Source of the DNA: Anaerolineae bacterium
GTDB taxonomy: Bacteria; Chloroflexota; Anaerolineae; JAAEKA01
Direction: 5' to 3'
Length of the DNA: 64,000 nucleotides
NCBI GenBank assembly: GCA_049299095.1
Contig: JBAQWV010000143.1
Coordinates: 25,000-88,999, forward strand
The stretch's first letter is position 1. The number at the start of each line of letters is the position of its first letter. Both the position numbers and the translations under genes were made by a program. Below the pieces are notes generated by a model. That model was given only the letters and a program-made list of their open reading frames with translations. It searched no databases and was not told the DNA's origin. Shown piece by piece: positions 1,353 to 45,303 of the stretch.

Positions 1353-3140
1353 ATGAATGATCTGAACGCTACGCCTCTTAGTACAGATGCAGAATTCGAT
1401 GCGTTGCCCAGCGCCAGCCAGGCGCGCGGCCTTGACCCCGACACAGCCCGCTATCCCCTGGGCATGGTCGTGGCCGGTTCACTCTCCAAAGGGCTGGATG
1501 TGCGCCTCGCCCGCGAGATCAACACCGAAGATCAGGCTGTGGGCAGCTACGTGGTGGTGCGCGGCGCGGGCAAGCGCTTTTTCAGCATGATTACCGATGT
1601 GCTGCTGGGTGCGGCCAGTGACGAGGTCACGCTAAACCCGCCTGACCTGTCCGATCCCTTCCTACGCGAGATTCACCAGGGTACCAGCACTTTTGGCCTG
1701 CTGCACCTTAGCCCCATGCTGACGCTGGATGCCGAGGCGGGGGGCGAGCCGCAGCCGGTGAAGACCGTGCCGGGGCACTTCAGCCCGGTGCGCGCGGCCA
1801 GTCAAGCGGAGGTAAGCGAGGTATTCGGCGAGGAAGGCCACGACGCGGCGCGCAAAACCCACTTCTTTCATGTGGGCAATCCGCTGGACATGGCTGATGT
1901 CAAGGTGACGCTCAGCCTGGAGCGGCTGGTGGAGCGCTCATCCGGCGTGTTTGGCAAAAGCGGAACCGGCAAGACCTTCCTGAGCCGCCTGCTGCTGGCC
2001 GGCATTATTCGCGAGCGCGTGGCCGTGAACCTGATCTTTGACATGCACAATGAATATGGCTGGGAGGGTAGCAGCGAAGGCGTCACCAGCAAGGTGAAGG
2101 GGTTGAAGCAGATTTTCCCCGACGGCCGCGTCAGCATCTTCACGCTGGACGACGAATCGAGCCGACGCCGCGGCTCTAATCCCGACTATACCGTCACCAT
2201 CGGTCTCGATCAGGTGGAGCCGGACGATGTGGAGATGTTGCAGGGCATCCTCAACCTGAGCGAGCCGCAGTTGGGCGCGATCTTCGCCCTGCACCGCTAT
2301 CTGCGCCGCGACTGGCTGGCGAACTTCCTCGACGACACCTGGTTGGACAACCAGCAAGCCTTCGATCCTGACACCGGCAAAGAAAAATCGGGCTTGCAGG
2401 TGCTGGCCGAGGAGACGGGCCAGCCCTTCCAGACGCTGGCCGCGCTGCGCCGCCGGCTGCTGCAATTTGAGCGCTACGGCTTCCTCAAGCCGCACGCCGT
2501 GGACGATTCGGTGGAGCGCCTGCTGCGCTATCTGGACGCGGGCACCAACGTAGTGCTGGAGTTTGGCCGCTACGGCAACAGCCTGGACGCCTATATTTTT
2601 GTGGCGAATTTCCTTACGCGGCGGCTGCATCAAAAGTACGTAGAGAAGAAGGAGAACGCCTTCGGCAACAAGGCCGAGGAGCCTAAGCCGCTGGTGATTA
2701 CCATCGAGGAGGCGCACAAGTTCCTGGACCCGGCGATTGCCGGCCACACGATCTTCGGCACAATTGCGCGCGAGCTGCGCAAGTACAACGTCACGCTATT
2801 CATCGTGGATCAACGCCCCAGCCAGATTGACCCTGAGGTGATGAGCCAGATCGGCACGCGCGTCACTGCGCTGCTGGACGAGGAGAACGACATCCGCGCG
2901 GTGCTGATGGGGGTGAGCGGAGCAGCCGGGCTGAAGGAGGTGCTGGCGCGGCTGGACACGCGGCAACAGGCGTTGATCCTGGGCCACGCCGTGCCGATGC
3001 CCGTGGTGGTGCAGACGCGTTCCTACGATCTGACCTTCTACAAGGCGATGGGCCATGTGGACGATGCCGAGTTGCCCGCGCGGCTGGCTGAAAACGTCAT
3101 GAAGATGCGTGGCGAGGAAGGCTTCGAGGGCTTCGATTAA
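1353..3140 (+). CDS. HerA/FtsK-class (DUF87-type) P-loop ATPase with N-terminal HAS-barrel
   Basis: Walker A FGKSGTGKTFLSRLL. HerA-type EEAH-containing Walker B region PLVITIEEAHKFL. Arg-finger/sensor block RKYNVTLFIVDQRPSQIDPEV typical of HerA/VirB4/FtsK. N-terminal barrel-like region. GGAG RBS 8 nt upstream of ATG 1353. TAA stop at 3138-3140. Confidence 0.65.
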   Translation: MNDLNATPLSTDAEFDALPSASQARGLDPDTARYPLGMVVAGSLSKGLDVRLAREINTEDQAVGSYVVVRGAGKRFFSMITDVLLGAASDEVTLNPPDLSDPFLREIHQGTSTFGLLHLSPMLTLDAEAGGEPQPVKTVPGHFSPVRAASQAEVSEVFGEEGHDAARKTHFFHVGNPLDMADVKVTLSLERLVERSSGVFGKSGTGKTFLSRLLLAGIIRERVAVNLIFDMHNEYGWEGSSEGVTSKVKGLKQIFPDGRVSIFTLDDESSRRRGSNPDYTVTIGLDQVEPDDVEMLQGILNLSEPQLGAIFALHRYLRRDWLANFLDDTWLDNQQAFDPDTGKEKSGLQVLAEETGQPFQTLAALRRRLLQFERYGFLKPHAVDDSVERLLRYLDAGTNVVLEFGRYGNSLDAYIFVANFLTRRLHQKYVEKKENAFGNKAEEPKPLVITIEEAHKFLDPAIAGHTIFGTIARELRKYNVTLFIVDQRPSQIDPEVMSQIGTRVTALLDEENDIRAVLMGVSGAAGLKEVLARLDTRQQALILGHAVPMPVVVQTRSYDLTFYKAMGHVDDAELPARLAENVMKMRGEEGFEGFD

Positions 3141-3282
3141 ACCAGTTTGGGGGTATTTGAAAAGCCATAATCAGTGGTTCGACAGCGTACAGCGCCACCG
3201 ATGGTAGCTTGCACGCTGCGGGCTGTCAAGTCGCGCAGGCTGTGAACATTTGTCCGCGCTGCGGCGTGCAATGCAATGAACC

Positions 3283-3314
3283 TGCCCGCGCGGGCAAATG
3301 TCGTTTTGTTTTGC
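3283..3314 (+). terminator. Putative intrinsic terminator after the HerA-like cassette
   Basis: GC palindrome tgcccgcgcgggca followed by the T-rich tract aatgtcgttttgttttg. Confidence 0.35.
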
Positions 3315-3340
3315 TGGATATTCAAGCCTATGGGTGTCCT

Positions 3341-5272
3341 ATGACCACTGATCATAACAAACGTTTATTGTATCTGTTCCTCGCCATCGCTCTGGTCGCA
3401 CTGACGGCGCTGACCGGCTGGGCTGGCTATAGGTTGTTCAGCCGTGCGCTGGGACCGGCCGTCACCACCACCCCATCCCCTGCGGTGGTGACGGTGATCG
3501 TGGTCGCCACCCCCACCCAGCCGATCCCCTCTCCCACGCCGACACCCCTCTCGACCGTCACCACCATTGCCACCATGCCAACGGTCGCAACCGTGACGGC
3601 GTCCACACCGACTGCCGCGTTGAGCGTGATCGTCACGGCCGATCTGGCGAATCTGCGCAGCGCACCGGACATTGGTGCGCCAGTGCTGGGGGCCGCGCCC
3701 AAAGGCACACTCTTGCAGCCGCAAGGCCGTACGGCTGACAACCAATGGCTGCAGGTGTGCTGTGTCTCCAATCAGTGGGGCTGGATCACCAACCATTCCG
3801 ACCTGGTAACGTTGAATTTCCAGCCCGGCCTGCTGCCGGTGGTGCAATTCCCCACACCCGCGCCACAGCCACAGCCGACCCATACGCCCCCGCCTACGTG
3901 GACGCCCGCGCCACAGCCGACCCGCACGCCCTTGCCTACGTGGACGCCCGCGCCGCAGCCGACCCGCACGCCCCTGCCCACGTGGACGCCCGTGCCGCCC
4001 GCGGCCACAGCCACTTCCACACCGCCCACCGACTTCTGGCGAGGCGAGTACTTCAACAACCTCACGCTGCAAGGTCCACCGGTGTTGACACGACACGACG
4101 CGGCCCTCACTTTTAGCTGGGGAACAGGCAGCCCCGCGCCCGGCGTGGTCTCCGCGGATAACTTCAGCGCGCGCTGGACGCGCTGGCTGGTCATGCCGCG
4201 CAGCGATACCGTGCGCTTCGCAGTACGCGTAGACGATGGCGTGCGCATCAAGCTGGATGGCGCGCTGATCCTCGATGCCTGGCGCGACAGCGCACAGGCT
4301 GAATACGCGGTGGAACGACCAGTGTCAGCCGGCTCGCATCTCGTGGAGGTAGAGTATTACGAGCGCAACGGGCAGGCCGAGATCAATTTCGGCTGGATGC
4401 CGGTCGCGCCATCCCCAACAGCCAGCAGCACCCCCACGACGACCGCGACCGCTACGCGCACGCCAACGTCCTCCCCCACCGGCACACGCACGCCAACGGC
4501 GACGCCGACGACCACAGTCACCGGCAGCCCCACGTCAACAGCGACGCCGACGCCGACCGTGACGACAATGCCTACTATCGTTGTGCCGCCGTCGGAACCA
4601 ACCGCCACGCCCACCGCCACCAACACGCCAGCCACCACGGCTACGAGCACATCAACGGCTACCACTGCTGCCACAGCCACGAGTACGTCAACACCGACGT
4701 TTACGGCTACCAGCACAGCGACTGCCACAGCGACGGCCACGCGCACACCAACGCCCACACCGCTCACTGCGACCCCGACGGCCACATCCGCGCCGCCCAC
4801 CGCCACGCCCTCTGCCACCAGTGAACCGGCAGCGACGCCCACACCCACGATCACACCATTGCCACCCACCCCGACCGCCACGGCGACGCCTGCGTTGCAG
4901 CCGTCGTTGGTGATCTCACCGACCACCGGCTGGGCGGGCACAGTGGTGCAGGTGACGGGCGCCAACTGGCTGCCGAATGACCGGGTGACACTCACAGTCA
5001 CACAGCCGCGCAGCCGCGGGCTGGAGTTTGCGCGCGCGCGCCTCCGCGTGCGTACCGACCGACAGGGCCGCTTCACCGCCACCCTGACCATGCCGCCGCA
5101 AGTGGCGCAGCCCGGTGCCACCGCAGTATGGATCGTCGGCACGGGCAGCCGCAGCACGCGCGCCACCGCAGTCTTTACGTTGACGCCGCCCTCGGATGCA
5201 ACGCCGGTCGGCGCGCCGACGGTGATCACCCCGGCCACGGACAGCACACCACCGCCGGACAGCAACCCATAG
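3341..5272 (+). CDS. Secreted or membrane-anchored protein with SH3b-like and PA14 domains and long Pro/Thr-rich linkers
   Basis: Start trimmed to the in-frame ATG at 3341 (MTTDHNKRLLYLFLAIALVALTAL, signal/TM). SH3b-like segment LANLRSAPDIGAPVLGAAPKGTLLQP. PA14-like block FWRGEYFNNLTLQGPP...DDGVRIKLDG...VEVEYYERNGQAEINFGW. Extensive T/P/A-rich low-complexity regions. Confidence 0.55.
   Translation: MTTDHNKRLLYLFLAIALVALTALTGWAGYRLFSRALGPAVTTTPSPAVVTVIVVATPTQPIPSPTPTPLSTVTTIATMPTVATVTASTPTAALSVIVTADLANLRSAPDIGAPVLGAAPKGTLLQPQGRTADNQWLQVCCVSNQWGWITNHSDLVTLNFQPGLLPVVQFPTPAPQPQPTHTPPPTWTPAPQPTRTPLPTWTPAPQPTRTPLPTWTPVPPAATATSTPPTDFWRGEYFNNLTLQGPPVLTRHDAALTFSWGTGSPAPGVVSADNFSARWTRWLVMPRSDTVRFAVRVDDGVRIKLDGALILDAWRDSAQAEYAVERPVSAGSHLVEVEYYERNGQAEINFGWMPVAPSPTASSTPTTTATATRTPTSSPTGTRTPTATPTTTVTGSPTSTATPTPTVTTMPTIVVPPSEPTATPTATNTPATTATSTSTATTAATATSTSTPTFTATSTATATATATRTPTPTPLTATPTATSAPPTATPSATSEPAATPTPTITPLPPTPTATATPALQPSLVISPTTGWAGTVVQVTGANWLPNDRVTLTVTQPRSRGLEFARARLRVRTDRQGRFTATLTMPPQVAQPGATAVWIVGTGSRSTRATAVFTLTPPSDATPVGAPTVITPATDSTPPPDSNP
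3869..3994 (+). repeat. Three tandem copies of a 42-nt coding repeat (PQPT-TPLPTWTPA) inside the PA14 protein gene
   Basis: Near-identical 42-nt units ccacagccgacccgcacgcccttgcctacgtggacgcccgcg at 3869-3910, 3911-3952 and 3953-3994. Confidence 0.8.
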
Positions 5273-5293
5273 AGACCGTGGGCAAAGGCTACA

Positions 5294-5335
5294 AAGAATT
5301 CGGCAGCGGCTCAATCGCTGCCGAATTCTTGATTT
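5294..5335 (+). terminator. Intrinsic terminator hairpin with GAATTCGG-core palindrome after the PA14 gene
   Basis: Perfect 15-bp inverted repeat aagaattcggcagcg / cgctgccgaattctt with 7-nt loop, followed by gattttg. Confidence 0.6.
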
Positions 5336-5381
5336 TGCCGCGCCGCTTGCAGATTCCCCGCGCTTCTACTACAATTTTAGC

Positions 5382-6260
5382 ATGACTTATCTTGCTGTTG
5401 CTTTAGCTGCGCAAACCACCGCGGCCGCGCAGGCTGCGCTCCGGCAGATCGCAGGCCGCGCGGATCTGGCTGAACTGCGTCTGGACTTGATGCACGAATT
5501 TGATCTGCCTGCCTTGCTGGCCGCGCGGCCCCTGCCGGTGATCGTAACCTGTCGCCCGCCGCGCGAAGGGGGGCGCTGGCAAGGCAACGAAGCCGCTCGG
5601 CTGGCGGTGCTGCAACAGGCTGCCGCACTGGGCGCTGAATATGTGGACGTAGAGTGGGATGCCGCGGCGATGCTGCCTAACCTGGATCGCACGCACACGC
5701 GCGTGATCCTGTCGCGTCATCATTTCAACACGATGCCCGTGGATTTGGCACAGCAAGCTGCGGCGCTCGCGCAGGCGGGCGCGGATGTGGTGAAGGTGGT
5801 GGGGATGGCGCACAGCCTGACCGACTGCGCACGGGCTTTGCGGGTGCTGGACGAAGCCCCCCTACCCACAATTGCAATCGCGATGGGGGTGTACGGTCTG
5901 CCCAGCCGCGTGCTGGCCTTCCGCTCTCCGCGCGCGCTGCTAAGTTTTGCCACGCCGGACGCTGCTGCGGGCACTGCGCCCGGCCAGCTCACGCTAACGA
6001 CGATGCTGGAGGACTTGCGCGTGCGCGCGCTGACGCCACAAACTACGGTTATCGGTTGGGCTGATGGCGACGTACGCGCCTGCGGGGCGGCAAATGCGCG
6101 GCTGGCCGCGCAGGGGCTGGACGCGGTGACGATTCCGCTGCTGTCTGTGGGGGATACAGACCGCGCACAGGCCGCGGCTAGCTTGCGGCTGGCATTCGTC
6201 CTGCCTGCGGGTGAAGCAGGTGCGGTGGCGCTGGCGCGCTGGGCTGCAACACAAGCGTAG
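5382..6260 (+). CDS. aroD: 3-dehydroquinate dehydratase type I-like (AroD family)
   Basis: N-terminal AELRLDL...PVIVTCRP..EGG and SRHHFNTMP (S-x-H-x-F, as in E. coli VSNHDF) resemble type I DHQase. Carries a C-terminal extension. Confidence 0.55.
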   Translation: MTYLAVALAAQTTAAAQAALRQIAGRADLAELRLDLMHEFDLPALLAARPLPVIVTCRPPREGGRWQGNEAARLAVLQQAAALGAEYVDVEWDAAAMLPNLDRTHTRVILSRHHFNTMPVDLAQQAAALAQAGADVVKVVGMAHSLTDCARALRVLDEAPLPTIAIAMGVYGLPSRVLAFRSPRALLSFATPDAAAGTAPGQLTLTTMLEDLRVRALTPQTTVIGWADGDVRACGAANARLAAQGLDAVTIPLLSVGDTDRAQAAASLRLAFVLPAGEAGAVALARWAATQA

Positions 6261-6299
6261 GGTTGTCATTATCTCCTCATCCGAAACACGGCGATGAGG

Positions 6300-6509
6300 A
6301 CCGTCTTCACGAAAAATTCAGAAATTATTCAGGAAAAATTCAAGACTCGCGCGGGGAGCATATGGTAAGATAGTGCAGTAGTGAGATAATGCAGTTGTGT
6401 AACTGTACAATGCGTGCTCTCACTTCCTCTTTTTGTATACTTATGACCTTGTGTACCTGCCTTCGGCATACCAATCTCCCAATCTACCCGCCTCTGGAGC
6501 ACTTATCCG
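6300..6509 (+). promoter_or_regulatory. AT-richer upstream region of the WXG100-toxin gene with direct repeats and candidate promoter elements
   Basis: Direct repeats gaaaaattcag / ggaaaaattcaag. Repeated gata(a)tgcagt motifs and tgtaactgtacaatg. Local GC drop relative to flanks. Confidence 0.3.
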
Positions 6510-7634
6510 ATGAGCAATGACATCATTCAGGCGCAATACGACACGCTAAACGCAGTGGCGCGGCGCTTCGGCGACCAGGCGGAGGCGAGCAGCCAGATGC
6601 TGGCTGGGGTGCGTCGCGCCATGCAGCCACTGCAAGCCGGTGCGTGGCAGGGTCGCGGCTCCACAGCGTTTTTCAACGAAATGACTGGTGAGTTGTTGCC
6701 CGCGTTGAATCGCCTCGTAGCCGCGCTGCAACAGGCACAAACCGTTACTACTGATATTGCCCGTCTCGTGCGCGCAGCCGAGGAAGAGGCTGCACAGCCC
6801 TTCCGGGGTGGCGAGAACGCAGGCAGCGATGCCGGAACCGCAGCAGGCGCTGACACGGCGCCGATACAAACGCTGCTGCCAACACCGCTGCCGACCAACC
6901 AGATCTTTGCCGATTCCTACATGGATGGTCTGGTGGGTTTGCAAGTACAGGGAGCCAACACCGCCCAACTGAACAGCGCGATGGAGACGCTGGCTGGCAC
7001 CCCCACGCCCGAGCAGGTAAACCAGGCGCTGGATCAGATCGCCCAGGCGCGCGGCGTGCCGCGTGCCGAGATCGAGGCGCAATACCAGCGTTACCTAGCC
7101 CTGCGCGACGAAGCTGCGCGCATCGCCGCGGCCAAGGGCATGGATCAGGTTCCCGCGGCCAGCCAGTTCCTGCACGATGACTTCATGGGCAGTACCACAC
7201 AACTGCGCTACGGCAAGGTCGTGGGCGACGCGCTGGGCATTGACCCGGTGTTCGGTGCGCTACTCAACCCCACTGGCGGGCTGGTCGGCCCCGGCAACGC
7301 GGCCGTTGACCTGGGCGATAGCGCACTGGGTTATCACGGCGTGGTGCATGACGCCGCCGGCTACCTCTACAACTACCACAACATGGGACCAGGCTATGAC
7401 TATCTGGGCCTGGAAGGGCGCGATACCAGCAGTCCATTGACCGGCCAGCAGGCTGGCATCCAGTATTGGACAAACAACATCAACGCGGGCTTTGTGGAAT
7501 CAACCCTGTCGAATACCGGCGGCACGTTGCTCGGTGTAGCGGAAGATGTAAAAACCGGCGTCACCCAAACAATAGACGCTATCAGTGATGGCGTTGAGAG
7601 CGTCCGTGACTGGTTTGGCGATTTATTTGACTGA
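6510..7634 (+). CDS. WXG100/LXG-like N-terminal domain fused to a C-terminal domain of unknown function (polymorphic toxin-like)
   Basis: First ~100 aa is a helical WXG100-type domain with W-x-G (LQAGAWQGRGSTAFFNEM). Followed by an A/G/T/P-rich linker and a ~250-aa C-terminal domain with no recognisable motif. ATG 6510, TGA 7632-7634. Confidence 0.55.
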   Translation: MSNDIIQAQYDTLNAVARRFGDQAEASSQMLAGVRRAMQPLQAGAWQGRGSTAFFNEMTGELLPALNRLVAALQQAQTVTTDIARLVRAAEEEAAQPFRGGENAGSDAGTAAGADTAPIQTLLPTPLPTNQIFADSYMDGLVGLQVQGANTAQLNSAMETLAGTPTPEQVNQALDQIAQARGVPRAEIEAQYQRYLALRDEAARIAAAKGMDQVPAASQFLHDDFMGSTTQLRYGKVVGDALGIDPVFGALLNPTGGLVGPGNAAVDLGDSALGYHGVVHDAAGYLYNYHNMGPGYDYLGLEGRDTSSPLTGQQAGIQYWTNNINAGFVESTLSNTGGTLLGVAEDVKTGVTQTIDAISDGVESVRDWFGDLFD

Positions 7635-7644
7635 GAGGTGTTGC

Positions 7645-8409
7645 ATGACGATTCCCTGTGCCATTTCATACCCTGTCACCCTCTCACCGGCACAACTGGC
7701 TTACCTGCTTTCGCTCACTGGTATTCAAGATTTGGTGGGCCTGGCCGATGAAGGCCTCTTTCCCAGAAACGGCGACCATTGGGAACGGCTTTTTCTGCAC
7801 GGCCGCGCCGAATTGGAGCGTGACCAGTGGTTGTATCAACCGCCCAACAGTGCCCGCACAGCCATCAATCAGGAGTTGCTGACAGTAGTGACCACGATGG
7901 CTGCGCCGGACGCAGTGCTGGTGACCACACTCAACCGTCCTGGCCTGCCCAGCCAAAGCGTCACCCATTATATTTCAACCTTTGTCGTGGAAGCGTGCTA
8001 CGATGGCCTGTACTACCGGATGGCTGCCTTGTCATCACCGGAAGTAATGCTGATGCGGCTGGCAAGCACCTTGGGTCTGCCCTCACAGCAGCCCGCGCTG
8101 GACGAATTCGTGCTGTCCAATGAGAGTGCGCGGCAGGCTGTGGCCGATCCGGCGCCGGAACACCTGGCCCGGCTGGGCGTGCCCAGCAGCAGTATACAGC
8201 TTTTCGCCCGCGCCCTCGATGCGGGTCGGCGTGCCAAGGTGCAGGTGATGCGACTGCGTTACGGCCAGGTGCAGGCAGTTCACCGCGTGCGCGCCCTGTT
8301 CGCCAGTGAATCCTCGGCCTGGCTGGCTTTGCCTGCTGATGGCGCGCGCGTACGCATGGTGCCCGCGTACGCGGGCGGTCTGGCCGAACAGGTGCAAGCC
8401 TTGCTATAA
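7645..8409 (+). CDS. Hypothetical protein immediately downstream of the WXG-toxin gene (candidate immunity protein)
   Basis: In-frame ATG at 7645, 10 nt after the toxin stop (ORF track start 7585 overlaps the upstream gene). No recognisable motif. Position matches the toxin-immunity pair convention. Confidence 0.4.
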   Translation: MTIPCAISYPVTLSPAQLAYLLSLTGIQDLVGLADEGLFPRNGDHWERLFLHGRAELERDQWLYQPPNSARTAINQELLTVVTTMAAPDAVLVTTLNRPGLPSQSVTHYISTFVVEACYDGLYYRMAALSSPEVMLMRLASTLGLPSQQPALDEFVLSNESARQAVADPAPEHLARLGVPSSSIQLFARALDAGRRAKVQVMRLRYGQVQAVHRVRALFASESSAWLALPADGARVRMVPAYAGGLAEQVQALL

Positions 8410-8425
8410 TAGGGGAGAACTACTT

Positions 8426-8863
8426 GTGAATAAACAGTTCCGTCATCGCTTTCTGTCTGGTACAACGTTTCCCATAGTTCTGGTCTTCGTCCTCGCCGTT
8501 TTTGTGCTCACCTCTTGCAATGCCATGAACGCCAACCGCTTACATATTCGCATCCAAAATACCAGCTCCTCTGACATCAGCGACTTTTGGCTGGGTGCAG
8601 GCTCCGGTGCAGGCGGGCCAGGCAGCCGTTCGTTCGGGGCCATTGCCAGCGGCGCAACTACGCCCTATCGCGCGCTAAAAGCCGAATTCGGCTTGTACAG
8701 CAACTATAATTTCCTGACCACAGAGGGCCAGCGCTTCATCGGCACAACCTTCCCCAACGAGCTGTTCGGCAAGGTTGAGCTGGAGCCAGGCTATTACACC
8801 TTTGTCGTTTCCACCAGCGGAGACGCCACCAGCCTTGAGATTGTGACCGATCCAGCGCCTTAA
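8426..8863 (+). CDS. Small lipoprotein, hypothetical
   Basis: GTG at 8426 preceded by AGGGGAG RBS. Signal peptide with lipobox-like VLTSC. Remainder beta-rich, Ser/Thr-rich. Confidence 0.45.
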   Translation: MNKQFRHRFLSGTTFPIVLVFVLAVFVLTSCNAMNANRLHIRIQNTSSSDISDFWLGAGSGAGGPGSRSFGAIASGATTPYRALKAEFGLYSNYNFLTTEGQRFIGTTFPNELFGKVELEPGYYTFVVSTSGDATSLEIVTDPAP

Positions 8864-8887
8864 TCGCTGACTTGCGGTCAGCAATGG

Positions 8888-8992
8888 GGCTATTCCCTGC
8901 TTGCCAGCTAATCGGTGATGTGTACAATGAAAGCAGCCAGCCAGGCGGGCTGGCTGTAGTGCCAACACATGCTGAAAAGCAGGGAATAGTCC
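8888..8992 (+). promoter_or_regulatory. Structured 5' leader whose outer stem pairs the RBS of the VWA-FHA gene
   Basis: Outer 15-nt arms ggctattccctgctt (8888-8902) and aagcagggaatagtc (8977-8991) with 14/15 complementarity. They enclose a perfect 9-bp hairpin gcagccagcc/ggctggctg (8933-8956). The 3' arm contains the AGGGA Shine-Dalgarno 3 nt before ATG 8994. Confidence 0.4.
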
Positions 8993-8993
8993 A

Positions 8994-11135
8994 ATGACTA
9001 AGAGGATATTAGCCGGTTTGGGCGCGCTGTTTGTGCTGTTCTTTGTGGCCGCGTTCGCGGTTTCCGCACAAGCGCCTGTTTCTCCGCAAGTAATTAGCAC
9101 CGTTGCGCATCCGGGGGCCGAAGGGCTGGGGTTGGATGTTTATTTTGTCGTGACAGACGGCGATGGGCAACCAGTACTGGATGCCAACCTGGAAGAAGCC
9201 ACGATCCAGGTCGTCGGCAGCGCCAGCGCGCCGATTCCGGCCACCATTAGCACCCCACAAAGCACCATCTATGTCGTCCTGCTGCTCGACGTCAGCGGCA
9301 GTATGCAGAATATTATCGGTCAGGTGCGCGCGGCCGCGCTGTCTGCACTACAAACATTACCCGCCAATGCCCGCGTGTCGGTCATCGCCTTTAGCGACCA
9401 AATCAGTGTCGTCACCGACTTTACCGGGGACTTTATCACCGTACAACAGCGAATTCAGCAGATCGGCGTTGCTCCTGGCGCGCCGACCTGCCTGTACGAT
9501 GCCGTGTGGGACGTAATTGATCGTCTGGACATTGCCGCAACGGAGCCACAAGACCGCCGCGCGCTGATCCTTTTCACCGATGGCCGCGACGAAAAGGGCA
9601 ACGGGCAAGCATGCAGTATTCACACGTTGCAAGATGTCGTTCAAAAGGCACAACGCCAGCCCGCCACACCCATTCATACCATCGGCTTGTGCGGTGCGAC
9701 ATGCGCCAACCTGAACGTCACAGAATTGAGCGAAATCGCCAGCGCCACGCGCGGTTTTGCTGTAACTGGTGGGCAGACTGACCTGGAAGATATGTTCCAG
9801 GCGATCATGGACGGACTGAACGCCCAACTGGTCGCGCGGGCCGTGGTGTATCCCCGGCAGGGTACGGGGCAGGCTGTGCTGGCCGTACGGCCACACGATC
9901 TGAATGCCTTTGTGACCACGATGTTCAACTTTCGTTCTGACAAGGATTATGCCGAGCCACTGCCGCCGGTGGCTGTGCGCGTGACAGAACTGACCTTCCT
10001 GCCTGACAACAATACCTATCAGGTGGGTCTGGGCATCGGCAATCCGCAATCAGCAGACCGTCTGATCGTGAGTATTGAGGAAACCGAAGGCGGCAAGACG
10101 GTACTCAAGGGTTTGGAGATCAACGTCGAAGGCCGCGCTGCACTGCAAACAGACTTGCCCGCGGCCAACCTGACCGCGGGCCGTAAATACACCATCAAAT
10201 TTCAGGCCGTGGATGTCGCAAACAACTTCCTTACACTTCCTGAAGGCGCCGACGCCTGTTCCGATGACCCGACCGTCCTCGGCTGTAAAGAGTTCACACA
10301 CGAGCCGCCCGTTGCCCCCGGCTGCGAATTCGCGGTTCAGTCCGTTGCTTCGGACTACACCAATCAAGTACTGCGCTTCGATTTGGTGATGCCCAAACAG
10401 TGCAACGATGTGTTCTATCAGGGGGTGATCGTCCAAAAGGACACCGGCCAAAAGGTGCAGGACATCGGCCGCGGCACTTTCTTTGCTGCACAGGGCACCA
10501 ACCAGATCAATATTCCCATGCCTGTGCGGCTGTTACAACTGAAGAAAAAAGACCCTGTGCCGGAATTGGCGATGACCCTCACGCTGGAAACGCGCGAGAG
10601 TAAGCAAACCACGTTGGCCTATGAGTTCGTGCCCGATCGCCGCCCCCCCGTGCCTTTGACGGAATTTTTGCGACGCAATATCATGTTTTTGGTCGGTGGC
10701 CTGGCTATTGTAGTGTTGTACTTTCTATATCACACTTGGCAGTCACAACAGGCAGAAAAGCAGAAACGCGAGCAGGTGCGCCCGCCCATCGAATCCACCA
10801 CCAAGCCTGTTAATTTTGAAACGCCAGCCATGCGCTTGAAGCTACACATTCTATCCACCCCTGATCCCCAAAACCGGCGCGATCTGGTTGTAAGCCAATT
10901 CCCCTTCGTAATTGGCCGCAAGGAAGGCAACCTTATTATCCGGGATCAGAAAGTGTCTGGCAAGCACGCTCAAATCACCATCAACGGCAATGAATTCTTT
11001 ATTGAAGACCTGGGCAGCACCAACCACACCTACCTCGCGGGCAAGCCCCTGGTGCCGCACAGCCCACAGCGCCTGCCCAGCAAGCTGAAAGTGCGCCTCG
11101 GCCCCGACACCGAAATCGAAATCGAAACCATCTAA
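8994..11135 (+). CDS. Membrane protein with extracytoplasmic VWA domain and cytoplasmic C-terminal FHA domain
   Basis: Signal peptide [48 protein letters not shown] ... [13 protein letters not shown]. Single [20 protein letters not shown]-terminal FHA signature [49 protein letters not shown]. Confidence 0.7.
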
Positions 11136-38312: not shown

Positions 38313-39686
38313 TTGTCTAACTCAAAATTCCGCAATGTGCTGTTGACTCTGGTCGTTTTTACGGTACTGGCGCTGGCGTTGGCAGCCTGTTCCACGCCGC
38401 CCGCGACTACAACTGACACCGCAGCGACCGCGGCTCCGGTTGCCACCGAAGCCGTCGCAGTTATTCCCACTGAAGTCCTCACGATGACTGTGCCGACCGC
38501 GACCACGCCGATCAGCATGGGCCCCAAGCCCATGCCGGTCACCGATGGATCCCGCCCGCTGGCTGACCTGACAGTGCCGCAGCGTAATGGCATCTACGGC
38601 GGCGCGCCGGATATGACCATTGACCCGGCCAAAATCTATGTCGCCACTTTCAAGACGGCCAAGGGCGATGTCGAAATTGAACTGTACGGCAAGGAAGCCC
38701 CGGTTGCGGTCAATAACTTCGTCGTGCTGGCCGACCTCGGCTACTACGATGGGATGCCGCTGTACCCGGTCGGCCCGCCCAATGCCGTGCTGTCCGGCGA
38801 TCCGACGGGCGACGGCCAGGGCGGCCCCGGCTATGACTTCCCCGCGGAGATCATGATTGCCAACGGCACGGGCGCGCTGGGCTACCTGCGCCTGCCTGAC
38901 CAGATCAACCCCGACCGGCTGAGCAACGGCAGCCAGATTTACATCACGCGCGAGGCAGTGCCGGATATTGACGGCGTATACGCGGCGTTCGGTCAGGTGA
39001 TCAAGGGCCAGGAAGTGCTGGATCAGCTCGTGCAGGGCGACGTAGTTGAAACCGTTACCATCAGCGAGGCCAAGGAACGCGTGGCGGCCACACCTGCACC
39101 GCCGACCCCCACCCCCACGCCTTACGCGCCGACCTCGGAGAAGGGCCGCCCGCTGGCTGCCCTCGATCCAGAGAAGCGTATCAACTACTTTAATACGGCT
39201 CCGACCATGCAGTTGGAAACGGGCAAGGACTACCTCGCTCGCATCACCACTGATCTGGGCGACATCGTGGTGGACCTAAATGAAAAGCAAACCCCGCTGA
39301 CTGTCAACAACTTTGTGGTGCTGGCAAACCTCGGTTTCTATGATAACACCATGTTCCATCGCGTGATCGAAGGCTTTATGGCGCAGGCAGGCGATCCGAG
39401 CGGCACCGGCCGCGGCGGCCCCGGCTATACCTTCGAGGACGAAATCGTGCCGGAATTGGTGTTCGACAAGGCAGGTATTCTGGCGATGGCTAACGCCGGG
39501 CCTGCCACTAACGGCAGCCAGTTCTTCATTACCTTCGACGCGACCGACTGGCTGAACGGCCAGCACACCATTTTTGGCAAGGTCATCGAAGGCCAGGACT
39601 TGCTGAGCAAGATTCAGTTGCGCGATCCCGCGGATCCCAGCGCGCCCGCGACCATGATTAAGACGATCACCATCGAAACCAAATAA
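38313..39686 (+). CDS. Secreted/lipoprotein peptidyl-prolyl cis-trans isomerase with two tandem cyclophilin domains
   Basis: Two cyclophilin cores (…[30 protein letters not shown]… and an earlier [30 protein letters not shown]). Signal peptide with LAACS lipobox. TTG start 38313 after GGAGG RBS (ORF track alt-start 38298). Confidence 0.75.
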
Positions 39687-39704
39687 TCCTGAATAAGCAG
39701 TAGC

Positions 39705-39745
39705 TAAAGCGGTGACTGTGCCATAATGCAGTCACCGCTTTTTTG
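39705..39745 (+). terminator. Intrinsic terminator after the cyclophilin gene
   Basis: aaagcggtgactg tgccataatg cagtcaccgc tttttt. Confidence 0.7.
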
Positions 39746-39867
39746 TAGCGCGCATGAAGATTCAGCTCTCCTGGTGTCTTGGACATAAGCATATGGGCGC
39801 GAAAAATGGGCTTCCAGACATCTGATCCGTGTGGCATCATTGATAGGGGCCTGCAAGGAGCAAACAT

Positions 39868-39899
39868 ACGCGCTGGCCCGTTACGTTGGGCCAGCGCGC
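39868..39899 (-). terminator. Perfect 11-bp GC hairpin downstream of the minus-strand island operon (putative terminator)
   Basis: acgcgctggccc gttacgtt gggccagcgcgt. On the minus strand it is followed by a moderately T-rich tract. Confidence 0.4.
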
Positions 39900-39929
39900 T
39901 CACTACAATTTGTATGACTGTAGAGCCGG

Positions 39930-40559
39930 CTAGAAATGAGTCCAGATGGGGGTTATTCCTGCAACAAACCACCTTCCATTAACTCTCACAAGGATCGCTT
40001 CCTGAAGTGCGGCTCCATCATCATAGCGGACCACAGCCCTGTCTCCAGTTATCTGCATGGACTCGTAGGTCAACACGGTCTTGGTGATAACAGGGCTGGC
40101 TAGAGCAGGCATCTGGCCGTGGTTCGCTTTGACGACCTCCTGCAACTCGTCCGCAGTCACTTCACGATCTTCTGCTTTAGCCTTATCAAGAGCTTTTTGC
40201 AGAAGCCTGGCGCCTTGTCCCCAGGCAACATACTGTGCTTGCATCACGGTTAGATATCCCGCACTACTTGCTTCTGCCTGTCCCACTATCTCAGCAACTT
40301 TTTCCATCTGCCGGGCAGTGAGTGTGTAATCCGACGTATTGACAAACACGCTGGGGAGCTCCGAGATATCAAAGGTCTGCGAAGCGGAGGCAATGACCTG
40401 ATAGGCTCGATCCATTGTCGCCATGATTTCCATGGCTTCATCGGAATCAGGCACCCCGGGGTCAGACCTCACCTGCGTCGCTCGGATAACAAACAACCCC
40501 ATTGAAAGGACAACCACCGTGACTGCGATTAGCCAGCGATTGCGGATTTGCTTGAACAT
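39930..40559 (-). CDS. Hypothetical secreted protein (signal peptide), in lower-GC island
   Basis: N-terminal MFKQIRNRWLIAVTVVVLSMGLFVIRA signal/TM. No known motif. Confidence 0.4.
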   Translation of the reverse strand: MFKQIRNRWLIAVTVVVLSMGLFVIRATQVRSDPGVPDSDEAMEIMATMDRAYQVIASASQTFDISELPSVFVNTSDYTLTARQMEKVAEIVGQAEASSAGYLTVMQAQYVAWGQGARLLQKALDKAKAEDREVTADELQEVVKANHGQMPALASPVITKTVLTYESMQITGDRAVVRYDDGAALQEAILVRVNGRWFVAGITPIWTHF

Positions 40560-40602
40560 GAATAGCTCCTTTCACGCTTGTGTGAGATTTGATGCACCCT
40601 GA

Positions 40603-41228
40603 CTAGTAGATCACATGCCACGCCCAGAGCGGCGTGCCGCCTGGAATATTGTAATCCCATCTGACCCTTTTTCGGTCGACACAATGTTGGCTGCCCAATA
40701 GCCTCCATTGCCCGATCTGATCTCCTTCTTGTACATTCCCCCATCCCACGATTACTCGGCCATGATCGGGGCCATTGAAGGGATTGGTGGGTAGATTCAT
40801 TACAAAAAAAAATCGCCCGCACTTAGGGACGACGGCCCACTGGAGATGTATTGATACCTTGAAGACTGATACTGCGACGCGTGAGTGTTGAGCCAATCTG
40901 CGGCAGCCCACGTCCTTGACACTTTCCACACTAGCAAAACTTTGTAGGCGTACCAACGCAGCGCATCATTGCTTCCTCTGATCTGCGGTATGCCACCTTG
41001 CTCCAAAACTTGTGATATGAAGTTGGTGCAGTCATTGCAGCCATTGTCAGTTCCATAGTTCGGGTAATTGCTGGGACGGTCTTTGGCATGCGCGTCAGCC
41101 CAAGCGACAGCGGATGATCGGTTATAGACTCCGGCGTATACTTGACTGGTGTGCAGCATGATCACAGTCGTAATCACGAGTACCAGCGCAGTTGCAGCAA
41201 CGAGTTTTATTGGACGCATGGTTACCAC
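40603..41228 (-). pseudogene. Putative amidase-domain (Amidase_6/PF12671-like) secreted protein interrupted by a frameshift at an A9/T9 homopolymer
   Basis: ORF 41228..40800 (…GCNDCTNFISQVLEQGG…SAGDFFL*) stops at a T9 run (A9 at 40804-40812, plus strand). ORF 40956..40603 continues in another frame (FFFVMNLPTNPFNGPDHGRVIVGW…). Inserting one T fuses them into a single ~210-aa protein. Confidence 0.55.
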
Positions 41229-41348
41229 CTTAGATTCGATTTACTTGTTGGGCTGTTGATCCGCCGGACTTTCCCGCAACAACCACAACTCTATCACATC
41301 CCGAGGTCCTTGTCATCCGTAAAACTACCAGATTCTATTCACCTAACT

Positions 41349-42035
41349 CTATCTGGTTTTCGCTCCATGCCACCAGTCCGGGGGCAGGTTGTCGCGAATC
41401 CACACAGCCAGCGCCAGCCGCGACAAAACGCCGACCTTGTCCAGCGCGTTGCCCATGTGGTACTCAACAGTTCTTGGAGTGATTTGCAGCGCTTCCGCCA
41501 TCTGCTTGGTGTCCATGTCTCGTGCTGCCAGCCTTGCCACCGCGCGCTCTTGCACCGTCAAGTTGAGCCAGCGTGATCCCACTTCCTCCCTCCACCGCCG
41601 CGCCCGCGATCTCTCTTCTTGCGTCCAAATCGTCTCACCTCCAGCAACGCGGCGCAGTGCTGCAATGAGCATCTCAGGTGAAGCGGCTTTTGGCAAGAAG
41701 CCGGCGATGCTGCTGCTCTCCATTGCACCGAGATAGCGATCGTCATCAAAGGCTGTCAATCCCACCACGCCAGTGCTCGGACAGTTTGTCTGCACCCATG
41801 CAACGATCTCTAAAGGATCTGAATTTGGCATGTTGAGGCTCAGGATCAGGACATCCGGCGTCAAACCGTTCATACCACTCAACAATGCCTCTGCATCACC
41901 GAATTCAGCCATGACTCGCATATCATCCACCGGTTCCAGCTGTTGGCGCAAGGAAGCGCTAAACAATGCATGGTCATCTGCGATCACGACATGGATAGTG
42001 CGTTGGCAGGTCAAATTTTCCTCCACAAACAACAC
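41349..42035 (-). CDS. LuxR/NarL-family response regulator with atypical receiver (phospho-acceptor Asp replaced by Ser)
   Basis: REC domain VVIADDH...DVLILSLNMP...LTAF...LPKAAS, where the canonical D of the hDhhhhDhxMP motif is S. C-terminal LuxR HTH LTVQERAVARLAARDMDTKQMAEALQITPRTVEYHMGNALDKVG. No histidine kinase nearby. Confidence 0.7.
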   Translation of the reverse strand: MLFVEENLTCQRTIHVVIADDHALFSASLRQQLEPVDDMRVMAEFGDAEALLSGMNGLTPDVLILSLNMPNSDPLEIVAWVQTNCPSTGVVGLTAFDDDRYLGAMESSSIAGFLPKAASPEMLIAALRRVAGGETIWTQEERSRARRWREEVGSRWLNLTVQERAVARLAARDMDTKQMAEALQITPRTVEYHMGNALDKVGVLSRLALAVWIRDNLPPDWWHGAKTR

Positions 42036-42179
42036 CCTCTCATGAAAGGTCGAAGTTATTCTCTAAAACAGTTAGTATCCATCATACTAAATTCAGCTGC
42101 CCTGTCAAATGGAGTTCAATCCTCCTGTGCGCGCCCGCGCGCAAGCTGGCGGCGGTGCGCGAAAGCAACCTGCGCCGGA

Positions 42180-42208
42180 TTGACACGCTCCCCCGAACCG
42201 GCTATAAT
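42180..42208 (+). promoter_or_regulatory. Consensus sigma-A promoter driving the valS T-box leader
   Basis: TTGACA (42180-42185), 17-nt spacer, TATAAT (42203-42208). Confidence 0.6.
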
Positions 42209-42214
42209 CCTTCC

Positions 42215-42545
42215 ACCTGAAAACAAACAACAACTGTGAACCGGAGGAGTAAGCGGACTGCCGTCGCCAGGGAAGACAGGCCAGCGATTGAGAGCCTGTC
42301 CCGATGTGAGCACCGCCGAAGGTCGCCGGTGAGTTGATGGGCTGAGATCGGTGACTGGTAAACGGTTATCGGTGATCCGCGGTTAGACACTCATCTGACC
42401 GATCACCGATTACTGATCACCCAAGTAGGCCAACCCGGGTGCGCCCGTTACAGCGATCGAGTGGATAGCTGGCCGCGCTGGCTGTCAAACAAGGTGGTAC
42501 CGCGAAAGCTCCTTTCGTCCTTGTGACGATGGAGCTTTTTTATAT
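42215..42545 (+). promoter_or_regulatory. T-box riboswitch leader with intrinsic terminator upstream of valS
   Basis: Conserved T-box core GGTGGTACCGCG at 42493-42504. Followed by terminator aaagctcc tttcgtccttgtgacgat ggagcttttttat (T-run 42536-42541). ~330-nt leader, canonical for aminoacyl-tRNA synthetase genes. Confidence 0.7.

Positions 42546-42564: not shown

Positions 42565-45303
<2,739 letters not shown>

Follow-up and report, generated by a model that had tools for sequence, protein, structure and literature searches.

A mosaic insert between a PPIase gene and valS in an uncultured Anaerolineae bacterium: an aspartate-less response regulator, a conserved promoter element and a candidate hydrolase cassette

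Three minus-strand genes of an uncultured Anaerolineae bacterium pose the question of what holds a regulator and its neighbours together, and of whether they still act as a system. They lie at 39.74–42.17 kb of a stretch of 64,000 nucleotides (nt) (contig JBAQWV010000143.1, assembly GCA_049299095.1, positions 25,000–88,999; hereafter the window), in an insert between the terminator of a peptidyl-prolyl isomerase (PPIase) gene and the T-box leader of valS (Table 1). The genes encode a NarL/LuxR-type response regulator with a serine at the phospho-acceptor position, an Amidase_6 protein whose reading frame is broken, and u209, a protein of 209 amino acids (aa) with an NTF2-like domain. An initial annotation, made from the sequence letters without database searches, held that the three genes form a unit. 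We found instead that, judged by patterns of sequence identity, the insert is made of two separable modules, the regulator with a promoter element of ~120 bp and the amidase with its NTF2-like partner, which recombine independently. On balance we lean towards the reading that this is an accessory insert in which a kinase-less regulator and its promoter element control an exchangeable cassette for an exported hydrolase and an NTF2-like protein.

The mosaic patterns were obtained by blastn of the region against fetched loci (L numbers below). One locus (L005) matches positions 42118–41266 at 92%, including the promoter, the regulator and the intergenic element, and continues with unrelated small secreted or membrane proteins. 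Two others (L090 and L091) match positions 41274–39928 at 87%, which comprises the amidase and its partner, and carry a regulator that is just ~53% identical to that of the window. It is because the identities of regulator and cargo are discordant among these loci that we consider the modules separable. The breakpoints fall at 41266–41291, inside the promoter element. Two further loci (L098 and L100) match the window at 99.6% up to position 39927 and then diverge. L001 and L090 have flanks in common (the GAF-SpoIIE gene is 82.6% identical) and differ in their cargo; the rpsO-pnp side was not seen in L090. Pfam searches of the other cargo (proteins of 244 and 171 aa in L006; 155, 57 and 142 aa in L090; 176 aa in L001) identified just a small PLDc_N membrane protein.

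Remnants of regulator 3′ ends (…CLPESWWRQP in L090; …IVWIRDDLPPD in L098 and L100) are found beside or downstream of cassettes, a pattern that would be expected from cassette exchange by recombination in a conserved stretch. We note that these remnants lie at 2039–2199 of L090, 1614–1677 of L098 and 973–1036 of L100, downstream of a complete cassette; the one in L090 precedes a further copy of the promoter element, and the contigs of L098 and L100 end within theirs. No integrase or transposase gene was found within the insert (open reading frame (ORF) list and Pfam), and no flanking repeats around it (a scan for inverted repeats only, and blastn of the flanks). Exchange apparently proceeds by homologous recombination in the promoter element. 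The locus clearly exemplifies how cassettes are exchanged at a promoter that is conserved. Its regulator-plus-promoter 'handle' is the one unusual architectural feature, and the rest is of known kinds.

The element consists of (T/C)ACGG repeats, a −35 TGACA (41316–41311), a 17-nt spacer and an extended −10 TGTGATAGAGT (to 41288); the promoter-like site within it reads ATGACA-17-TAGAGT with an upstream TG (41316–41288). After the −10, the element holds a short CCGGAGAGTCCGG-type hairpin, followed by a cassette-specific 5′ untranslated region (5′UTR) and a Shine–Dalgarno sequence. The 5′UTR hairpin of the window element is no more stable than shuffled sequences (z −0.3). The element is present behind every regulator of the clade to which the window regulator belongs, even at 47% protein identity. 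An nhmmer profile of the element matched only behind clade regulators and at the second copy in L090/L091, which precedes another secreted-protein gene. Isolated 12-mer matches in L013 and L041 were unsupported by this profile and were taken as chance. When metagenomes were scanned with a DNA pattern of 44 bits made from the element, two loci only were returned, both of the known L001 type. As read by eye, with no statistical test, the TAC and CAC forms of the repeat co-vary within a locus. We infer from sequence patterns that the element is the target promoter of the regulator.

The regulator ORF, as listed (41349–42035), gives 228 aa from a GTG at 42035 or 225 aa from a GTG at 42026, the latter being the more likely start according to gene callers and Shine–Dalgarno spacing. 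Pfam identified Response_reg (E = 1.1e-15, 58.2 bits, cutoff 30.2) and GerE (E = 2.8e-12, 46.5 bits, cutoff 23.5), and the protein aligns over its full length with NarL, VraR and RcsB (E = 1e-19 to 1e-16; phmmer for NarL 1a04), so that its REC domain and GerE-type helix-turn-helix (HTH) place it in the NarL/LuxR (GerE) family. Its DVLILSLNMP pairs with DLILLDLNMP of NarL, which puts Ser66 on the acceptor residue D59 and so agrees with the proposal made from the sequence; the other pocket residues named at that time are also present (D20/D21, T94 and K116). No HisKA or HATPase_c domain was found in the 46 window ORFs scanned (a non-overlapping set of ORFs of at least 100 aa), in agreement with the earlier remark that no histidine kinase is nearby. 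The acceptor aspartate expected at the end of beta3 in a canonical, phosphorylatable receiver is missing, and by the definitions of PMC12632262 the protein classifies as an orphan atypical regulator with an aspartate-less receiver (ALR), or pseudo-receiver. Ser is the third commonest substitution in such receivers, and Ser, Thr and Tyr substitutions, which account for 12% of Asp-less receivers and could be phosphorylated, were recorded in the same ALR survey (PMC4395418). The C-terminal tail (WIRDNLPPDWW) is specific to the clade.

A search covering 5.8 billion proteins returned just four close relatives of the regulator, and beyond them generic NarL-type proteins at ~32% identity. The relatives share 89% (P0001, acceptor Asp), 70% (P0002, Gly), 62% (P0003, Asp) and 47% (P0004, Asp, with the DD pair degraded to DH) aa identity with the window regulator. 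Nothing above 89% was found, yet the Logan contig L097 encodes an identical regulator, which the word-indexed search either missed or did not have in its index. The acceptor codon is AGC in the window, GAC in L005, L009 and L001, and GGT in L006. Members of a wider family, identified by exhaustive profile search, have a linker (EQLxRARRWREEV..RW) and a tail (WVRDHLPxxxW) in common, and carry Cys or Asn at the acceptor position or miss the DD pair. Because relatives carry Asp, Gly, Cys or Asn here, we read Ser66 as a recent change and no family trait, and the phosphorylation pocket appears to be weakly constrained in the clade; such a pocket would fit a regulator acting independently of phosphorylation, which is plausible. 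For the window regulator, the ratio of nonsynonymous to synonymous substitution rates (dN/dS) was estimated at 0.41 when compared with L005 (0.55 in the C-terminal part, i.e. linker and HTH), 0.30 with L006 and 0.23 with L009, which indicates purifying but relatively relaxed selection. The description of the protein as an atypical, Asp-less regulator therefore stands as far as the missing acceptor is concerned, and does not extend to membership in any established Asp-less lineage, as the closest relative has Asp.

The N-terminal half of the amidase (40800–41228, minus strand) matches positions 2–86 of 163 of the Amidase_6 profile (PF12671; E = 5e-16) and ends in a TAA directly after a run of nine T, the A9 tract at which the initial annotation had seen the gene interrupted. 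A frame-restoring edit extends the match to the whole domain (positions 2–151 of 163, E = 1e-18, 68.2 bits, cutoff 23.2). The homologues are intact (~204 aa, 90–41% identity), and the Cys of DCTNF and the His of PDH, i.e. the papain-like Cys/His core, are invariant among them. A Sec-like signal peptide is predicted (MRPIKLVAATALVLVITTVIMLHTSQVYA, then G; N-terminus MRPIKL…VYA, then G), as read from the sequence without a tool. Because a PDB sequence search with the repaired amidase gave nothing significant, the fold was assigned by model, and the modelled structure most resembles Tae3, an amidase effector acting on peptidoglycan, and enzymes of the NlpC/P60 type; Amidase_6 has been grouped with Tae3 among papain-like amidases (PMC10318531). 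The dN/dS of the amidase is 0.10.

The reading frame is shifted by +2 at T9 identically in three assemblies: L097 (SRR28060467, over 14,089 nt) and L099 (SRR28060526) match the window at 100%, also at T9 and at AGC, and on account of these two further assemblies we consider the frameshift genuine. In L098 (DRR438478, from another study), which is 99.56% identical over 1365 nt, the amidase is intact and reads GAT TTC TTT GTA as compared to GAT TTT TTT TTG TAA in the window (TTTCTTT versus TTTTTTTTT). The lesion consists of a synonymous C>T change that made a T7 run, followed by a +2 expansion from T7 to T9, and removing two T from the window gene yields a protein identical to that of L098. It is counted as +2 because homologues show FF at this point; they have no homopolymer here (GACTTCTTT, GATTTCTTT). 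Since a 99.6%-identical allele is intact elsewhere, sequence comparison dates the frameshift as very recent.

The third gene, u209, is intact, and its product has the N-terminal hydrophobic helix expected of the secreted protein that had been predicted here. It belongs to no Pfam family, and its structure has an NTF2-like fold (an alpha+beta cone with a curved antiparallel sheet). All 41 homologues are unnamed and from Chloroflexota, including a 100%-identical entry annotated as WAZ19_13260 (Anaerolineae bacterium). The gene is identical in assemblies from four sequencing runs and has a dN/dS of 0.15, i.e. it is under purifying selection. A u209-family gene directly follows an Amidase_6 gene in the window, L090/L091, L094–L096 and L115/L116 (at least four divergent lineages), and we regard u209 as a candidate inhibitor/immunity or cofactor partner of the amidase. 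We also observed other arrangements of the family: in a hot-spring-type metagenome contig (L096), two copies (5356–6000 and 7087–7731) flank the Amidase_6 gene, and in the related L094 and L095 just the downstream copy is present. L116 (1875–3935) encodes a 686-aa secreted relative in which an unannotated domain of ~215 aa occurs twice; a linker rich in Thr and Pro and, at the C-terminus, an Amidase_6 domain complete the protein, and a u209 homologue comes next. The corresponding region of L115 has been called as a 249-aa protein.

Past u209 lies the perfect 11-bp hairpin that the initial annotation had put at 39868–39899 (see Table 1). It has a folding free energy (dG) of −28.6 kcal/mol and a z of −4.8, none of 200 shuffles being as stable, and likely terminates the cargo operon. 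Since the similarity to other cassettes ends at 39927/8, the hairpin is not part of what is exchanged.

The expected drop in GC content at ~39.7–41.4 kb was confirmed by profiling of the window. The region 39742–42170 has a GC content of 0.529 as compared to a window mean of 0.604 (standard deviation 0.031, 2.4-kb windows) and is the lowest-GC 2.4-kb stretch in the window; equally low values were observed in 2 out of 616 sliding windows, both overlapping the insert. GC at third codon positions (GC3) is 0.56 and 0.55 in the cargo genes and 0.63 in the regulator, and mostly 0.66–0.81 in other genes of the window. The drop is real and moderate in size, and the cargo genes are low in GC in each host examined. 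The insert is atypical in composition, missing from syntenic relatives and mosaic in its relationships, and so has the marks of a horizontally exchanged genomic islet; mobility genes and flanking direct repeats are not among the marks seen. A phage origin is unsupported: in viral contigs there was no close relative of the regulator or of the amidase, and amidase matches reached just 27–42% identity over partial N-terminal stretches. The PPIase terminator (dG −26.1 kcal/mol, z −5.35) forms the left border of the insert. A 101-aa ORF that overlaps this terminator and the hairpin (39667–39972, minus strand; GC3 0.52) is unsupported and probably spurious.

Table 1. Features of the insert and its borders, with positions in the window
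Feature	Position	Strand	Basis or remark
Intrinsic terminator of two-domain cyclophilin-type PPIase gene	39706..39741	+	inverted repeat, 13-bp stem then T run
GC-rich hairpin, 11 perfect pairs	39869..39898	-	inverted-repeat scan, fold; ~30 nt past u209 stop
u209, 209 aa, N-terminal signal/anchor helix and NTF2-like domain	39930..40559	-	ORF, structure comparison
Amidase_6 (Tae3/NlpC-P60-like) gene of putative exported hydrolase, inactivated by +2 frameshift	40603..41219	-	Pfam, homologues
T9 run (A9 on plus strand), frameshift site	40804..40812	-	comparison with intact allele
Conserved ~120-bp element	41230..41351	-	promoter scan, alignment, nhmmer
Orphan NarL/LuxR-type response regulator	41349..42026	-	Pfam, NarL alignment
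AGC codon, Ser66 at phospho-acceptor position	41838..41840	-	NarL alignment, codon comparison
Sigma-70-like promoter of regulator gene	42081..42108	-	promoter scan; TTGACA-16-TATGAT, 11/12 matches; kept in L005
Promoter before valS	42180..42208	+	perfect sigma-70 consensus, TTGACA-17-TATAAT
T-box leader of valS	42227..42525		80.4 bits, E = 7.6e-18
Terminator hairpin of valS leader, with U run	42505..42538		

For comparison of the site, we used relatives from a species-representative genome collection, in which the order glycosyltransferase, UDP-glucose dehydrogenase, PPIase, gap, valS and onward is kept (PPIase 57–83% identical). Six fetched loci retain both PPIase and valS, and the regulator, the amidase and u209 are absent from the gap between them in all six; an island that was syntenic and typical in composition in all relatives would have spoken against the proposed acquisition, and this is not what was seen. 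The gap holds only the ~370-nt T-box leader in L015, a DedA-like membrane protein and a methyltransferase in L010, the DedA-like protein with an HNH protein and a further gene in L012, a REP-associated tyrosine transposase in L014, and a methyltransferase in L017; in L045 it is ~1.5 kb long (length only). In L009, a short metagenomic contig, a regulator of the clade (62% identical) directly adjoins this T-box leader of valS. For this reason a clade regulator may have been at the valS site in more than one lineage, and the insert may in part predate any single recent acquisition. The proposal of a horizontally acquired module thus holds with respect to atypical composition and absence from relatives, and is qualified with respect to age.

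We note that the PPIase–valS gap is a variable hotspot in related Anaerolineae, and that a S-adenosylmethionine methyltransferase is placed between the T-box and valS. The T-box scores below the Rfam gathering score of 93, apparently owing to a ~70-nt insertion not present in L010 and L017; at the gathering threshold Rfam gave no matches in the whole window, and the T-box was found just by an E-value search of the leader. Because the leader terminator overlaps the mechanically called GTG start (42523), valS probably starts at an ATG near 42565 (MTNSSFDMPKTYDF). Elsewhere in the window, a plus-strand cluster (1353–11135) encodes a HerA/DUF87 ATPase, a PA14+SH3 protein, a VWA+FHA protein and a protein of 374 aa (6510–7634) that starts with a WXG100 domain and extends far beyond it at the C-terminus, and may represent a type VII-like secretion or LXG-type toxin context.

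Under the reading of an accessory insert with an exchangeable cassette, the regulator would act without a partner kinase and bind the (T/C)ACGG repeats abutting the −35 of the downstream promoter, from where it would control transcription of whichever cassette lies behind. The Sec-exported hydrolase would attack peptidoglycan, either the cell's own or a neighbour's, and the NTF2-like protein, membrane-anchored or exported, would restrain the hydrolase or protect the producer. New cassettes would enter by homologous recombination in the 3′ end of the regulator gene and the promoter stretch.

Several observations weigh against this reading. The link between regulator and promoter is one of sequence pattern, the window has one copy of the element only (12-mer search and nhmmer profile), and the upstream (T/C)ACGG repeat, as read by eye, is degenerate in the window as compared to L005. 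Clade regulators number just a handful and are mostly on short contigs. Regarding the cargo, the match between u209 and the immunity protein Tai3 is weak (Foldseek E 0.03–0.05, at the level of the NTF2 fold), and genes of the u209 family are also found without an adjacent Amidase_6 gene, in L101 (Ca. Amarolinea), L103 and L117 (beside an integrase). The Pfam name of Amidase_6 itself carries 'putative', and YhbB and YjcM, the Amidase_6 proteins of B. subtilis, are without reported biochemical activity (PMC10653849). Finally, the regulator dN/dS of 0.41 against its closest relative, together with the dead amidase, could mean that the whole locus is decaying.

In the window strain, Ser has replaced Asp as the acceptor residue, the T7-to-T9 slip has only just broken the hydrolase gene, and the partner gene is intact. 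A dead enzyme with an intact partner fits toxin loss with immunity kept, and equally the simple decay of an accessory autolysin. That the locus as a whole is a decaying remnant, Asp-to-Ser and the frameshift both being inactivating lesions in an unused accessory locus, seems rather unlikely to us. Two lesions in adjacent genes, the degenerate upstream repeat, the relaxed dN/dS of the regulator, above all in its linker and HTH part, and the extremely recent frameshift would be consistent with decay, whereas the ORF of the regulator and both promoters, its own and that of the cargo, are intact, as is u209, without sequence differences, in assemblies from all four runs, and the recurrence of non-Asp acceptors (Gly, Cys, Asn) in otherwise conserved relatives suggests that the change is tolerated. 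More credible, though still not what we expect, is a housekeeping autolysin pair in which the amidase remodels the cell's own wall during filament growth or separation and the NTF2-like protein serves as its anchor or regulator, as in IseA–LytE; the patchy presence, the exchanged cassette and the atypical composition in every host, together with the ready loss of the enzyme where the partner is kept and the partner genes without an enzyme, would be less expected of core wall maintenance than of accessory genes of the toxin/immunity type.

The remaining alternatives concern single residues or runs. Runs of nine A or T are prone to transcriptional slippage, and the amidase ORF has no other damage and specifies a protein like that of the intact allele in every residue, so the amidase might still be made by RNA polymerase or ribosome slippage at T9, or the run length might be an assembly or sequencing error. 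We consider this improbable: L097 and L099 come from different runs and agree across T9, homologues lack a homopolymer here, so slippage is no evolved feature, and for a +2 shift a slip of −2 or +1 is required. Ser66 might also be a site at which a Hanks-type Ser/Thr kinase phosphorylates the protein to regulate it, in place of His-Asp signalling, given that DD, T and K are kept around it and that such substitutions could be phosphorylated (PMC4395418). Ser is found in this strain only, the mechanism is undemonstrated at the acceptor position, and no kinase is linked to the locus; we give this idea hardly any weight.

The accessory-insert reading can be taken further, and at this point we regard it as speculative and unlikely to hold in full: a kinase-less NarL-type clade with a degenerating phospho-pocket would be the fixed 'head' of an Anaerolineae cassette-exchange locus, its 3′ end and promoter being the handle by which Sec-exported effectors (one being a Tae3-like amidase with an NTF2-like immunity protein) pass from strain to strain, leaving orphan cassettes. 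If true, this would be a regulator-anchored antagonism/immunity system independent of a type VI secretion system (T6SS) in filamentous Chloroflexota, and the window strain a 'toxin-lost, immunity-kept' genotype. As to the cargo, the amidase and u209 are candidates for a peptidoglycan hydrolase that depends on Sec and its partner in Chloroflexota; the phylum is important in activated sludge, and almost nothing is known of its cell-wall hydrolases or interbacterial antagonism. Asp-less receivers are common and their origin is poorly documented; the same regulator with Asp, Ser or Gly among sequences 70–92% identical (nucleotide level) offers a natural series on whether phosphorylation matters. 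The findings change no general principle, and the functions are inferred.

Compared with known systems, the window regulator resembles the ALR-class regulators of the NarL (LuxR) family surveyed in PMC4395418 and PMC12632262 (e.g. Streptomyces WhiI and the RcsB-like SecR) in its REC and GerE domains, non-Asp acceptor, lack of an adjacent kinase and presumed phosphorylation independence. It differs from them in that its Ser is strain-specific, Asp is found in its nearest relative, and none of DD, T and K has been lost; its clade also has its own linker, a Trp-rich C-terminal tail and a conserved promoter that would drive variable secreted cargo. Unlike Tae3–Tai3 (PDB 4hz9), the amidase has a predicted Sec signal peptide and a Chloroflexota host, and the scanned window ORFs revealed no genes of a T6SS, which argues against T6SS delivery; in contrast to both Tae3–Tai3 and the NlpC/P60 hydrolase–inhibitor pair LytE–IseA, toxicity and inhibition are here presumed. 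A third likeness concerns the exchange itself. In the orphan modules of polymorphic-toxin loci (cdiA-CT/cdiI and rhs), a displaced or downstream cassette comes after a leftover piece of the conserved upstream gene, and this piece gives homology for exchange. By analogy with these systems, drawn from general knowledge, the regulator remnants by displaced cassettes and the different cargo at the same site in L001 and L090 may be read in the same way, with two differences: the arrays seen here are short, with one or two cassettes, and their handle would be the 3′ end of a transcription-factor gene with its promoter, and not the constant region of a toxin.

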